From positions 1 to 54,332 of the forward strand of contig JBKJZI010000236.1 in NCBI GenBank assembly GCA_046715155.1: 54,332 nt of DNA, given 5' to 3'. This document shows positions 16,252-43,935 of the stretch, one piece after another. Each line of letters begins with the position of its first letter. The first letter of the stretch is position 1. The notes under the pieces were generated by a model. It was not told where the DNA came from. It worked only from the letters and a program-made list of their open reading frames with translations, and made no database searches. The stretch is from Chthonomonadales bacterium (GTDB lineage Bacteria > Armatimonadota > Chthonomonadetes > Chthonomonadales > CAJBBX01). The position numbers were made by a program, and so were the translations under genes.

Positions 16252-16335
16252 CAGTTATCAATATCAATTATCAATAAGCCCCCATCCTACATTGATAATT
16301 GATAATTGATAATTGATAACTGATAATTGACAATT
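16252..16335. repeat. hairpin built from tandem ATTGATA heptamers, between convergent gene ends
   Basis: Left arm cagttatcaatatcaattatcaat (16252-16275). Loop aagcccccatcctac. The right arm is (attgata)x4-actgata-attgaca (16291-16335) and can pair with the left arm in several registers. Confidence 0.85.
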
Positions 16336-37744: not shown

Positions 37745-37803
37745 GTAATTAACTAATCAGTCAACAGTAATGGCCCTTACTGATCACTGTTTACTGATTA
37801 CTG
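37745..37803. repeat. imperfect hairpin of ACTGATN heptamers between ccrM start and fmt stop
   Basis: cagtcaacagtaa (37758-37770), loop tggccc, ttactgatcactg (37777-37789): 11 of 13 bp. The right arm continues as actgatc-actgttt-actgatt-actg and overlaps the fmt stop codon. Confidence 0.7.
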
Positions 37804-38738
37804 CTTTCCGTCTCAAATCGGTCACCCGGTGAAATGCGAGCCCCGCGAGCCCACTCTGCGCCGGACATTCGGCGGCTGTTTTCGGGCTGCACTTCCAATA
37901 GATCAACAGCGCCATTCCCGGTTCCTACGGTCACGGAATCGCGGCTGCTGGAAACGACGGTTCCAGGCTCTTTCTCCGGAAGGGGAGATACCGCTACCGA
38001 CCACAACTTGATCCTGCGCCCGCGGAAGTAGGCGAAGATGCCCGGCCGAGGTGAGAGCGCCCGCACCCGGTTGCGAATTCTCGTCGCGGGCTCGTTCCAT
38101 CGGACAGCAGTGTCTTCAGGTGTGATAGCAGGGGCGTGTGTTGCGAGCGCGTCGTCTTGCGGAATCCGCGCGATAGTCCCTTCCTGAATCTGCCTAAACG
38201 TCTCCAGAAGCAGCTCGGCGCCTGCGGCGGCCATCCTGGGGACGAGCGTGCCGGTTGTATCCTCCGGATCGATCGGAACTTCCAGTTTGAGCAGAATATC
38301 TCCGGTATCCAGAGTTGCGTCCATCCACATGGTGGTTACGCCCGTTACGGTCTCGCCGTTCAAGATAGCGTATTGTATCGGAGCAGCTCCCCTATATGCC
38401 GGAAGCAATGACCCGTGCACGTTGATAGGGCCCTTCGGCGGTAGATCCAGCAGCGCCTGCGGAATGATCTGCCCAAACGCCGCGAGCGCCAGCGCCTCCG
38501 GATTCATCTCCCTCGCCTGTAAGATGAACGATTCCGCTCGCACCCGCTTCGGCTGCAGGACGGGCAGACCCAACCGGAGAGCCGCGTGTTTGACCGGTGA
38601 GAACGCCACCTTTAAACCTCGTCCTTGCGGCCTGTCCGGCTGAGTAACGACCGCCAAAACTTCATGTCGGCCGGATTCCGCCAGCGCCTCTAAGGAAAGC
38701 ACCGCGAACTCAGCCGTCCCGAAGAAAAGCACGCGCAT
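37791..38738 (-). CDS. fmt: methionyl-tRNA formyltransferase
   Basis: MRVLFFGTAEFAV..., VVTQPDRPQGRG, HGSLLPAYRGAAPIQYAILNGE, TGVTTMWMDATLDTGDIL. Confidence 0.93.
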   Translation of the reverse strand: MRVLFFGTAEFAVLSLEALAESGRHEVLAVVTQPDRPQGRGLKVAFSPVKHAALRLGLPVLQPKRVRAESFILQAREMNPEALALAAFGQIIPQALLDLPPKGPINVHGSLLPAYRGAAPIQYAILNGETVTGVTTMWMDATLDTGDILLKLEVPIDPEDTTGTLVPRMAAAGAELLLETFRQIQEGTIARIPQDDALATHAPAITPEDTAVRWNEPATRIRNRVRALSPRPGIFAYFRGRRIKLWSVAVSPLPEKEPGTVVSSSRDSVTVGTGNGAVDLLEVQPENSRRMSGAEWARGARISPGDRFETESSNQ

Positions 38739-38739
38739 T

Positions 38740-38767
38740 GAGAATTAGCCGCAAATGAACGCGAATG
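38740..38767. repeat. left arm of a 27/28-nt inverted repeat bracketing the GxxExxY insert
   Basis: gagaatTAGCCGCAAATGAACGCGAATG is the reverse complement of 39154-39180, apart from one extra T. Confidence 0.9.
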
Positions 38768-38780
38768 GACGGGAATGGAT

Positions 38781-39166
38781 TCAAAAGTCAAGAACGATTC
38801 GTTTCCATTCCATGCGTGGGTGCTGAAAGTTTATTAGGAGGGCGATCTTGATGTTGGTCGCCCGAAGGTAATTTAGGCATTGAGCCATGTGTTCATCACT
38901 GAAGCATTCAACACACTTTAGCTCAATGACCAGGCAGCCCTCGATTAGAATGTCGGCGAAATACTCACCGACGAGTTCCCCCTTATACAGGACAGGGACC
39001 GGAACCTGGGACTCGGCCCTGATCCCAATTGAACGAAGTTCCTGAATAAGCGCCCGCTCATCACTTTCTCAAGAAATGCGGCGCCCAGCACATTGGAAAC
39101 CTCATAGGCGGCTCCAATTACCCGGCGAACCAGGTCGTTCAAGTATTCGCGTTCATTCGCGTTCAT
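38781..39166 (-). pseudogene. GxxExxY-family (PD-(D/E)xK-like) protein gene, interrupted by a 1-nt frameshift near 39060-39064
   Basis: Frame 1: MNANEREYLNDLVRRVIGAAYEVSNVLGAAFLEKV. After the frame shift (one base missing, near 39060-39064): ERALIQELRSIGIRAESQVPVPVLYKGELVGEYFADILIEGCLVIELKCVECFSDEHMAQCLNYLRATNIKIALLINFQHPRMEWKRIVLDF*. Restoring one base (..EKV-Y-ERAL..) gives a complete 128-aa family member. Confidence 0.8.
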
Positions 39167-39180
39167 TTGCGGCTATTCTC
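39154..39180. repeat. right arm of the inverted repeat bracketing the GxxExxY insert; overlaps the def stop and the GxxExxY start
   Basis: CATTCGCGTTCATTTGCGGCTAttctc. It contains the tandem decamer (TCGCGTTCAT)x2 that encodes the MNANERE N-terminus on the minus strand. Confidence 0.9.
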
Positions 39181-39745
39181 GCATCTCCGGATCGTCTTCT
39201 TCATCCAGCTCCGATTCGACGAGCCAGTGAAGGGTCTCGCGCTCGGCTCGCTGGAAGAAGAGGATTCCGTCCAGGTGGTCGATTTCGTGCTGGATAACGC
39301 GCGCTTCGAGCTCACGGGCGCGGCGGCGGAACGGCCGGCCGAGAAGGTCCATGCCTTTGACGATAACTTCATTGGCGCGTTTGACCTCGCCCTGCAGGCG
39401 CGGAATAGAGAGGCAGCCCTCCGTTCCGATCTGTTCTCCTTTCAAGGAGACGATCTTCGGATTCACCACCACTCGCACCGGTTCATCCTCCTCCGGAAGC
39501 CTGTAAATGATTACGCGCTCCGAGACCCCGATCTGAGGGGCGGCGAGTCCGATGCCGCGCCAGTCGGCCATCGCCTGTTTCATCCGGTCGACGAGCTGAC
39601 GCGTTGCAGCAGTCGGCTTAACGACCGCAGTTGACGGCCGTTCCAACACCGGATCCGGATACTTGACGATGGGGCCGTCCAACTCATCCCACAGCGCCCG
39701 GATATCGGGCGGAATCTCGAGTTGGAACTCTTTGTCGATCAGCAT
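39173..39745 (-). CDS. def: peptide deformylase
   Basis: GIGLAAPQIG, EGCLSIP, HEIDHLDG (the three PDF motifs). Confidence 0.93.
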   Translation of the reverse strand: MLIDKEFQLEIPPDIRALWDELDGPIVKYPDPVLERPSTAVVKPTAATRQLVDRMKQAMADWRGIGLAAPQIGVSERVIIYRLPEEDEPVRVVVNPKIVSLKGEQIGTEGCLSIPRLQGEVKRANEVIVKGMDLLGRPFRRRARELEARVIQHEIDHLDGILFFQRAERETLHWLVESELDEEDDPEMRE

Positions 39746-41028: not shown

Positions 41029-41460
41029 ATGAGGCACACGGTCCTGCTGGCTTTTGCGCTGCTGGTTGTTATCACCTCGGCGAGCGCGATCGCTCCGCGG
41101 AAGCGGTATGTTCGGCGGTCTTCGGCCGCCGGCCTAACGCGGTCTCTTTTGGCGCAGAGCAGCCGGTACCTGGCTGGAGTTCGAGCGGAGTGGAAACGCC
41201 AGCCGGTGCGGGTAGGGGGCGGCTTCAAGCGGTACGCGCCGTTCACCGTCGTCTCTACCGCAGCCGACGTTGAAAAGTCTGATTCCGCGTCCGCGCCATT
41301 CCGTGGGCATCTGACTATCAAGGTGAAGTACCGCGAGACGGCATTGCATGAGAATCCCCGTGAAGCGCTGCGCGCTCCGCTGCGCGCCGAGCGGGAGTTC
41401 GCTTTCGAGCCGGCTTTCGCATTCCGTCACGGCAAGTGGGTGGCGGCGTCGGAAGAATGA
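41029..41460 (+). CDS. hypothetical exported protein
   Basis: RBS GGAGAA. Signal peptide MRHTVLLAFALLVVITSASA. 143 aa. Confidence 0.65.
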   Translation: MRHTVLLAFALLVVITSASAIAPRKRYVRRSSAAGLTRSLLAQSSRYLAGVRAEWKRQPVRVGGGFKRYAPFTVVSTAADVEKSDSASAPFRGHLTIKVKYRETALHENPREALRAPLRAEREFAFEPAFAFRHGKWVAASEE

Positions 41461-41544
41461 GTGTGGAAGTGTGGAGGTGTGGAAGTGTGGAAGATTCTGG
41501 GGTCGTGTCTTGCATACCTCCACACTTCCACACTTCCACTCTTC
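41461..41544. repeat. hairpin of GTGTGGAA octamers immediately after a stop codon
   Basis: Left arm (gtgtggaa/gtgtggag)x4 at 41461-41493. Right arm cctccacacttccacacttccactcttc at 41517-41544. One register gives a perfect 15-bp pairing, 41479-41493 with 41525-41539. Confidence 0.85.
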
Positions 41545-43749: not shown

Positions 43750-43838
43750 GGAGAGGTGGCTGAGTGGTCGATAGCGGCGGTTTGCTAAACCGTTATAGGC
43801 TTTAAACCCTATCCCGGGTTCGAATCCCGGCCTCTCCG
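43750..43838 (+). tRNA. tRNA-Ser (anticodon GCU), class II with long variable arm
   Basis: Acceptor GGAGAGG/CCTCTCC, D-arm GCTGAGTGGTCGATAGC, anticodon stem-loop GCGGT-TTGCTAA-ACCGT, variable arm TATAGGCTTTAAACCCTAT, T-arm CCCGGGTTCGAATCCCGG, discriminator G. The CCA end is not fully encoded. Confidence 0.93.
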
Positions 43839-43848
43839 CCGGGAAACA

Positions 43849-43935
43849 CAGTAATCAGTTATCAGTGTTCAGTCATCAGTAAAGGCCGCAAAACTGATCA
43901 CTGATTACCGATCACTGATCACTTACGATCATCAG
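43849..43935. repeat. long imperfect hairpin of CAGTNAT / ACTGATC heptamers directly after the tRNA
   Basis: Left arm cagtaatcagttatcagtgttcagtcatcagt (43849-43880), loop aaaggccgcaaa, right arm actgatc-actgatt-accgatc-actgatc-acttacg. About 26 of 32 positions are complementary. Confidence 0.8.

Follow-up and report, generated by a model that had tools for sequence, protein, structure and literature searches.

A dead GxxExxY gene framed by inverted tandem-unit arms at the def-fmt junction of a Chthonomonadales bacterium

The window analysed here, a 54,332-nt contig (JBKJZI010000236.1) from the metagenome-assembled genome (MAG) of a Chthonomonadales bacterium, carries between the genes def and fmt an insert of 441 bp (positions 38740-39180) in which two inverted arms of tandem 10-nt units enclose a frameshifted gene of the GxxExxY family. 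The class of cassettes to which this def-fmt copy belongs is widespread and essentially undescribed in print; the copy itself was acquired recently and is dead. We regard it as somewhat probable that the insert is the dead copy of a compact selfish cassette, consisting of a GxxExxY gene with a PD-(D/E)XK fold together with its own cis sites, which would be two inverted arrays of about three 10-nt units each. The def gene, the GxxExxY frame and fmt all lie on the minus strand, and the features of the locus are as follows, in the direction of reading.

39173-39745, minus strand: def, peptide deformylase (TIGR00079, 141 bits; NF001159, 150 bits), the upstream host gene.
39145-39180, minus strand: upstream arm, GAGAATAGCCGCAAATGAACGCGAATGAACGCGAAT, built of 10-nt units and including the def stop codon and the cassette ATG (39166).
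39062-39166, minus strand: first 35 codons of the GxxExxY pseudogene (MNANEREYLNDLVRRVIGAAYEVSNVLGAAFLEKV), in which the motif Gly (G30) is Ala.
39060-39062, minus strand: frameshift site, a Tyr codon minus one base (GTG/AT GAG against GTG TAT GAG).
38781-39059, minus strand: remaining 92 codons and TGA of the pseudogene (ERALIQEL...RIVLDF, then stop), in the -1 frame and keeping D...ELK.
38740-38776, minus strand: downstream arm, ATTCCCGTCCATTCGCGTTCATTTGCGGCTAATTCTC, its last base 1 nt short of the fmt ATG.
37791-38738, minus strand: fmt, methionyl-tRNA formyltransferase (TIGR00460, 292 bits), the downstream host gene.

Both def and fmt matched NCBIfam equivalogs in profile searches, and the 434-nt spacer between them is occupied by a single reading frame that lies in two phases. 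The insert as a whole comprises the arms and the pseudogene, with the arms overlapping the end of def: the def stop codon TAG (39175-39173) lies inside the upstream arm, which continues through the cassette ATG, 6 bases further on, and the first seven codons of the open reading frame (ORF). Terminal inverted repeats with tandem short units beside the start codon are present around this ORF, the arm being a succession of 10-nt units (…AGCCGCAAAT GAACGCGAAT GAACGCGAAT). A repeat search returned an inverted repeat of 31 nt with 94% complementarity (38746-38776 against 39145-39175), and allowing one bulge extended it to 36 nt of tandem ATGAACGCGA units (38740-38776 against 39145-39180). The original prediction, made from the letters of the window, had described an inverted repeat of 27/28 nt, which is real and was understated; it had placed the overlap of the arm with the ORF start at 13 nt, where we count 22 nt in addition to the def stop codon; and it had noted a tandem decamer, which we located as two exact copies of ATTCGCGTTC at 39145-39164, the N-terminal peptide MNANERE being encoded by the arm. 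The adjacency of the left arm to the fmt ATG held as well, at a distance of 1 nt instead of the 2 nt given.

The pairing of the arms in a transcript, claimed in the same prediction, was borne out by predicted folding. In a 461-nt RNA the arms pair in both the minimum free energy (MFE) and the centroid structures (z = -6.8), none of 100 shuffled sequences folded as well (0/100), and the predicted duplex energy of the arms as RNA is -52.8 kcal/mol. In a def-fmt transcript, the arms would thus form a 36-bp stem with the insert as its loop, and the def stop codon would come to lie next to the fmt start codon, an arrangement under which the insertion would be tolerable. Neither a sigma-70 promoter nor an intrinsic terminator was predicted within the insert, and a comparison of the insert with Rfam returned no match to rRNA or any other family.

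Comparison with relatives shows, at the level of sequence, that the cassette entered this junction after the split from the lineage of the relative with 92% Def identity. The spacer between def and fmt measured -1 to 116 nt, apart from a single one of 271 nt, in the 21 genomes compared from the family or order of this bacterium, and none contained a GxxExxY gene, in agreement with the earlier statement that def and fmt are normally adjacent and that the 441 bp are an insertion. The cassette was absent from the relative with 92% Def identity and from ~40 more distant relatives. That closest relative is represented by a metagenome contig, L210, whose Def and Fmt are 92% and 89% identical to those of the genome under study. 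Its spacer is 79 nt long and holds no GxxExxY gene, and both the end of def (...PEMRE-TAG) and the start of fmt (ATGCGCGT) are those of the genome under study. Since L210 has the same ...PEMRE-TAG without the cassette, the def stop codon is native and the cassette starts right after it. The element had also been considered as the donor of the def stop codon, from the shared arm end TAGCCGC; this candidate is ruled out here by the same ...PEMRE-TAG in L210.

In many relatives, the junction is occupied by different hairpins built of tandem units. The spacers of L210 and of four further contigs (L155, 192 nt; L166, 482 nt; L169, 112 nt; L175, 174 nt) hold other tandem-unit hairpins, each starting from the def stop codon. 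In L166 (1118-1601), the 482-nt spacer consists of three tandem copies of a (GGAGTGAGA)n hairpin, and in L155 (1408-1601) the 192-nt spacer is one large (GGGAGTGT)n hairpin of -109 kcal/mol. The presence of other hairpins in the L166 and L155 spacers indicates that the junction was colonised independently, and the def-fmt junction has been repeatedly colonised and turned over by this element class. The def-fmt spacers of relatives with ~10 nt have no obvious Shine-Dalgarno sequence, and such short spacers suggest translational coupling of def and fmt.

The enclosed gene is recognisably a GxxExxY gene and recognisably broken. When the two frames were joined by X, the product matched TIGR04256 with 131 bits (cut-off 35) and PF13366 with E = 3e-38, the family being PDDEXK_3, and the second part alone, which ends at the TGA at 38783-38781, reached 104 bits against TIGR04256. 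Alignment to the closest intact homologue revealed exactly one 1-nt gap, between 39062 and 39061, and no further indel, matching the single base that had been called for near 39060-39064. The missing base falls in the Tyr codon (Y column) of the GxxExxY motif, and the same motif carries a second lesion, the replacement of its nearly invariant Gly (G30) by Ala, so that the intact G-x-x-E-x-x-Y signature is absent from the def-fmt copy. The PD-(D/E)XK core ADI...IELK is still present in the second frame. Another GxxExxY gene of the genome (C211, 16057-16406) likewise carries a frameshift, between intact (GACGCCAAG)n arms. The def-fmt copy thus reads as a young pseudogene descended from the family, in keeping with the earlier suggestion of decay, with a gene that appears broken while its arms are still predicted to pair.

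An artefact would offer a different account of these observations, either as a repeat that a chimeric assembly placed in the gap between def and fmt or as a sequencing error that mimics a frameshift in a live gene, or both. The source MAG (G000) is fragmented (374 contigs, 76% complete), and the low-depth soil-metagenome contigs that match parts of the insert and def leave the indel uncovered, none of them spanning 39010-39140. However, these independent contigs agree with the parts that they cover with zero differences, the contig carrying the insert is 54 kb long, and both junctions are exact, at the def stop and at the fmt start. The frameshift lies outside any homopolymer and shares its motif with the second lesion, which makes a sequencing error there unlikely, and the C211 copy is frameshifted too. 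We consider an artefact very improbable.

Framing by an inverted repeat is a property of the gene family and not of the def-fmt site. The genome contains five GxxExxY loci and 11 loci encoding four-helix-bundle proteins (TIGR02436, '23S rRNA IVS protein', where IVS denotes an intervening sequence), several of the latter being degraded copies. With an inverted repeat score of at least 14 as the threshold, 15/16 of these loci were framed, comprising all five GxxExxY paralogues, whose bracketing by inverted tandem-oligomer arms the original prediction had anticipated, and 10/11 four-helix-bundle loci; among 2,000 random spans of the same size used as a control, 0.35% reached score 15. A cross-match check found the brackets genuine in 15/15 cases, neither arm having a local partner. 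Tandem units of 6-10 nt make up the arms of every cassette, with a unit type that changes from one cassette to the next. The ribosomal-protein gene rpsK, examined as a possible arm cargo, was ruled out: both of its flanks hold a complete, self-contained hairpin, of one and the same type of unit, and the long-range match is a cross-match between the two. At that locus (C290:800-1360), complete (GGGTATC)n-type hairpins lie in both rpsK spacers of the ribosomal-protein operon, each beginning within a few bases of a stop codon; the Shine-Dalgarno sequence of rpsK comes after the first of them.

The same framing was found across phyla. A scan of one genome per species, with the alignment led by the GxxExxY paralogue on C281, yielded 80 loci with 56-72% protein identity in Acidobacteriota, Proteobacteria, Chloroflexota, Planctomycetota, Bacteroidota and others. 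Framing was detected in 61/80 of these GxxExxY loci, nearly all of which share ACCRCRGAG-RCRCRGAG-RCRCRGAG, the flanking unit family of the C281 paralogue itself. Cassettes mostly had the orientation of their neighbours (39/57 upstream, 42/59 downstream), and in 22/39 cases the upstream gene had its stop codon between -10 and +2 nt relative to the start of the arm. This orientation and stop spacing fits expression via read-through and coupling.

Cassette and arms evidently travel together. For the def-fmt clade, a protein search collected >100 homologues sharing 60-73% identity; one intact member, P0003, is 73% identical to the def-fmt copy. Of the 25 sequences inspected, most open with the peptide that the arm units encode, MNANERE, or with something close to it. 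The same arms, RGCCGCGAATGAACGCAAATGAACGCGAAT and its complement, recur at five loci from other organisms, a Sedimenticola MAG among them, and the arm units of another clade are ACCACAGAGACACAGAG. In pairwise comparisons with the loci of other organisms, the arms show 87-100% nucleotide identity and the ORF body 60-66%; the arms are therefore under a clade-specific sequence constraint. Taken together, these alignments show arms that are better conserved than the gene, inherited with it and specific to the protein clade. Two farmland metagenomes (L118 and L119) provide versions of one locus with identical GxxExxY proteins and two versus three 10-nt units in the downstream arm, and this one-unit difference between two samples indicates slippage. 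In Sedimenticola MAGs (L120 and L121), an intact cassette of the same clade separates the genes for the beta and alpha subunits in an operon of the propionyl-CoA-carboxylase type, with gaps of 26 and 51 nt to the neighbouring genes. Cultivated bacteria with a cassette inside an operon include Paramagnetospirillum kuznetsovii LBB-42 (L101), Algoriphagus aestuariicola JCM 31546 (L114) and Paludibacter sp. 221 (L060).

These arm data bear on an explanation set wholly at the RNA level, according to which the arms serve to build a stem for RNase III in the pre-mRNA of def and fmt, excision of the insert leaves two separate messages, and the ORF is a passenger whose arms are recognised neither as DNA nor by its protein. 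The build of the insert matches that of the Coxiella burnetii 23S IVS in helix 45, with its 28-bp terminal stem and three tandem GACAGAT heptamers before the S23p start, and in Coxiella the unit number varies by strain, the ORF is decaying and RNase III cuts mid-stem (PMC4990558). By analogy with the 23S IVS, the strong 36-bp stem predicted here would be a plausible RNase III substrate, and with the def stop and the fmt start at its base, a mid-stem cut would leave both ORFs whole. The lack of a predicted promoter or terminator in the insert and the prevailing co-orientation of cassettes with their neighbours also favour such processing. Pairing alone, however, does not account for the gap between arm and ORF identity, nor for the identical tandem units within one arm. 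Across 79 loci, arm mismatches comprised 80 G-U versus 64 A-C (p = 0.21), so that a sense-strand G-U asymmetry, sought as the mark of a functional RNA stem, was not found, and transversions made up half of the 288 arm mismatches. Inter-unit positions are often unpaired as well, matching their partner in only 66-74% of loci (chance 44-49%); solo arms occur; and the arrival of cassettes at new sites is left unaccounted for. We therefore consider processing at the RNA level unlikely as the explanation of the insert. The conservation of the arms, their identical tandem units and the absence of a G-U bias point, over and above any RNA processing, to recognition of the arm sequence itself at the level of DNA or protein, and argue from the alignments that pairing is not the sole constraint on the arms. 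The rRNA-type IVS analogy drawn in the original prediction thus stands for the architecture and for the link to hairpins described below, and is incomplete as a mechanism, since arm sequence is conserved beyond pairing.

The genome also contains ~185 gene-less tandem-unit hairpins of the same build. Their position relative to genes is biased: 69% lie close to the end of a long ORF, at -12 to +10 nt from its stop codon, compared with 35% of ordinary inverted repeats and 8% of random spans. The window itself holds the following gene-less hairpins, to which no strand was assigned.

16252-16335, unstranded: gene-less hairpin with (ATTGATA)n arms.
37745-37803, unstranded: gene-less tandem-heptamer hairpin at the junction of the fmt stop and a ccrM-like gene.
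41460-41544, unstranded: gene-less hairpin with (AGTGTGGA)n arms, -56 kcal/mol.
43849-43935, unstranded: gene-less hairpin with (ATCAGTN)n arms, 10 nt past the tRNA gene at 43750-43838.

The arm word of the def-fmt cassette occurs at six other loci of the genome, all of them without a gene, which substantiates the earlier suspicion that empty hairpins are related to the cassette. Three of these loci (C43, C356 and C126) have both arms around a short interior made of arm pieces from other cassette types, a composite present in three copies; a fourth, on C15, has a short loop and a duplicated arm; and the remaining two (C62 and C347) are solo arms. In C62 and C347, as at def-fmt, the TAG of the arm end TAGCCGC is the stop codon of the upstream gene. 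The composites (C43:20330-20512, C356:1683-1808 and C126:4640-4760) have the outer arms of the def-fmt cassette and an interior of the 5' arm type of the C211 GxxExxY cassette (AACCGCCAAGACGCCAAG), and the C43 composite also holds a complete (AAGAGTGG)n hairpin, a case of hairpins nested in hairpins. On C15 (480-1019, minus strand), a host ORF with the C-terminus ...DIEFDYEDEDLEEADEE runs into the arm and ends in the arm-encoded LAANERE and a stop; the arm and 15 nt are directly duplicated there, and the same duplicated form is found in an independent soil-metagenome contig.

Among 401 genomes of the phylum, the def-fmt arm word was patchily distributed, occurring in 10 with up to 69 hits per genome (≤69), and the reversed control gave ~0. 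The C281-type arm word was found in 27/151 genomes with up to 161 hits, chiefly as pairs 50-120 nt apart. Genomes in which one arm type abounds include G139, G098, G095 and G040. In G095, the 24-nt outer arms of one ORF-bearing cassette recur unchanged in eight gene-less copies; all nine also have in common an inner tier of further tandem-unit arms and lie in unrelated flanks. Complementarity extends into the copy-specific flanks in 5/8 of the gene-less copies, in one of them for 25 nt, in the middle of another palindrome. General flank complementarity was considered as proof of insertion into palindromes and was not accepted as such: it is clear in some copies and modest overall, at 0.36 versus 0.28 expected among 54 ORF-bearing loci.

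The hairpins could instead be beneficial to the host, as REP-like mRNA stabilisers, attenuators or translational-coupling devices inside which small genes find shelter. The concentration of the ~185 gene-less hairpins at stop codons, more than two-thirds of them against 8% of random spans, speaks for such a role, as do their presence between essential ribosomal-protein genes and the different hairpins with which several relatives fill the def-fmt junction. Yet the occupant of this junction varies among close relatives and most relatives have none, a sign of turnover and not of conservation; the distribution over genomes is patchy and burst-like (10/401 and 27/151); and the arms move with particular protein clades across phyla. 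A primary benefit to the host is, in our view, distinctly improbable.

Gene and repeat were also compared in their occurrence across genomes. For the C281 type, a cognate-clade gene (at least 57% identity) was present in 7/12 arm-rich genomes versus 0/18 arm-free genomes (Fisher's p ~4e-4). For the def-fmt arm type, 1/5 arm-rich genomes had such a gene. The gene-repeat association thus appears genuine but incomplete, as expected if gene-less copies outlive the gene, and it is not proof of action in trans. In one arm-rich region outside this genome (L129; G126:C64, ~15695), five forward def-fmt-type (type-A) arm words lie ~160 nt apart in a genome without any GxxExxY gene.

The protein encoded by such cassettes, of ~128 amino acids (aa), is predicted to be a minimal PD-(D/E)XK nuclease core. 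Residues D72, E82 and K84 are invariant in 32 homologues. An AlphaFold (AF2) model of an intact homologue reached a pLDDT of 94 and a pTM of 0.87, and the PDB folds nearest to it are lambda and LHK exonucleases, Cas4 SSO0001, MGME1, Hjc and a tRNA-splicing endonuclease. A sequence search of the PDB returned no homologue, PADLOC and PHROGs searches gave no match, and profile searches matched the insert protein to no transposase family. The family is very large, with 4,322 clusters at E <= 1e-10 for this single query, and a survey of PD-(D/E)XK proteins enters GxxExxY/PF13366 as 'Unknown, multiple transfers' (PMC3424549). Our literature search on GxxExxY and PF13366 returned sparse mentions, no description of flanking arms and no paper placing GxxExxY in a 23S IVS, where the original prediction had put it. 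The MAG holds no 23S gene, and hence no IVS in the 23S of the organism itself to inspect.

On the selfish-cassette reading that we favour, the encoded nuclease would recognise, and probably cut at, its own unit arrays, by analogy with the action of Ssn at NTS repeats and of RAYT at REP repeats. Such recognition would maintain or spread cassettes and their gene-less derivatives at the DNA level, with hairpin tips and stop-codon-proximal spacers as the preferred points of entry. Several observations weigh against this reading. No direct target-site duplication is visible in the flanks, into which some copies extend their inverted repeat. No presence/absence polymorphism was seen among near-identical strains. 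The cognate-clade gene of the type-A arms was present in only 1/5 arm-rich genomes and missing from the other 4/5, in which many hits are solo arms with no inverted partner. Four-helix-bundle genes, which do not encode nucleases, share the same frame, so that the nuclease cannot be the general engine. Finally, the closeness to stop codons could be a by-product of survival only in short operon spacers.

Among known systems, judging by analogy, the cassette would work most like Ssn/NTS and REP/RAYT, is built like a 23S IVS, and belongs to none of them. It shares with the 23S IVS of Coxiella and Leptospira an insert of ~430-450 nt with a terminal stem of ~28-36 bp, arms of tandem 7-10-nt units that reach the ORF start, a variable unit number, an ORF that is often decaying, and an insertion point at which the host RNA tolerates loop-out; the IVS protein family genes of this genome are, moreover, framed in the same way (10/11). 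In contrast to the 23S IVS, which are located in 23S helix 9, 25 or 45 and carry S23p (PF05635), a four-helix bundle, the def-fmt cassette lies in an mRNA operon and carries a PF13366 protein of PD-(D/E)XK fold. Excision by RNase III is proven in Coxiella, whereas at def-fmt it would be plausible from the architecture, and the def-fmt arm sequence is conserved with the protein clade, something that an RNase III stem does not need.

Ssn proteins are small GIY-YIG single-stranded DNA nucleases, described in Neisseria and many phyla, that are flanked by the NTS/SRM hairpin repeats they cut (PMC11893778). The likeness lies in a small nuclease gene of one domain that stands between copies of a repeat able to form hairpins, in the dispersal of the same repeat in tens to hundreds of gene-less copies, in repeat variants that match protein variants, and in the association of gene and repeat across genomes, which was seen here for the C281 type. 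The differences are the fold, GIY-YIG as opposed to a PD-(D/E)XK fold known here from sequence and predicted structure; the arms, which in GxxExxY cassettes are tandem-unit arrays in strict inverted order enclosing the gene; and the weaker association for the def-fmt arm type.

The REP/REPIN-RAYT systems of Pseudomonas and Enterobacteria likewise place a single gene between inverted copies of a repeat that populates intergenic spacers, with a repeat of its own for each gene clade and gene-less hairpins between genes. RAYT is a Y1 (HUH) transposase of ~150-190 aa, its genes are usually single-copy and vertically kept, and REP is a single imperfect palindrome. GxxExxY arms, by contrast, are made of tandem units, and proteins 60-70% identical are found across phyla. 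As with insertion sequences (IS) and miniature inverted-repeat transposable elements (MITE), there are autonomous-looking and internally shortened copies with the same termini in unrelated flanks (in G095 and in this genome), and copy-number bursts in some genomes. Unlike them, the cassette has no recognised transposase and no direct target-site duplication, and its copies are often nested in other palindromes. To our knowledge, an element of ~450 bp is smaller than any known IS.

A wider reading, which we put forward tentatively and regard as rather unlikely as it stands, would unite GxxExxY cassettes, four-helix-bundle (S23p) cassettes and gene-less tandem-unit hairpins in one undescribed superfamily of minimal mobile elements. 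In such a superfamily, a small protein would read phased arrays of its own 6-10-nt unit, entry at hairpin tips and stop-proximal junctions would explain the nesting, and the classical 23S rRNA IVS would be the particular case of an invasion into an rRNA helix. For the selfish-cassette reading itself, unit arrays that are clade-specific and conserved above the coding sequence provide a testable substrate hypothesis, namely the protein together with a three-unit oligonucleotide. They also connect three matters: where ORF-bearing rRNA IVS originate; two orphan families, 'IVS protein' and GxxExxY; and the intergenic hairpins of tandem units that abound in many soil and water bacteria. The def-fmt copy is a clean example in this respect, combining an exact stop-to-start insertion, a close relative without the cassette, arm-encoded N-terminal codons and arms that outlive the gene. 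In genome annotation, such inserts account for odd gaps in tight operons such as def-fmt, and their arms encode spurious terminal peptides, for example MNANERE at the start of cassette ORFs or host ORFs ending in ...LAANERE.

The tandem-unit hairpins of this genome also share a base-composition polarity. In 156/180 of the gene-less hairpins, on either strand, the 5' arm holds more G than C; common ancestry among families of units may have raised this count. The hairpins that deviate belong to a few AT-rich families (TTATCAA, TCTTAA/TCCTAA, AATGTCC and TCGTAA).

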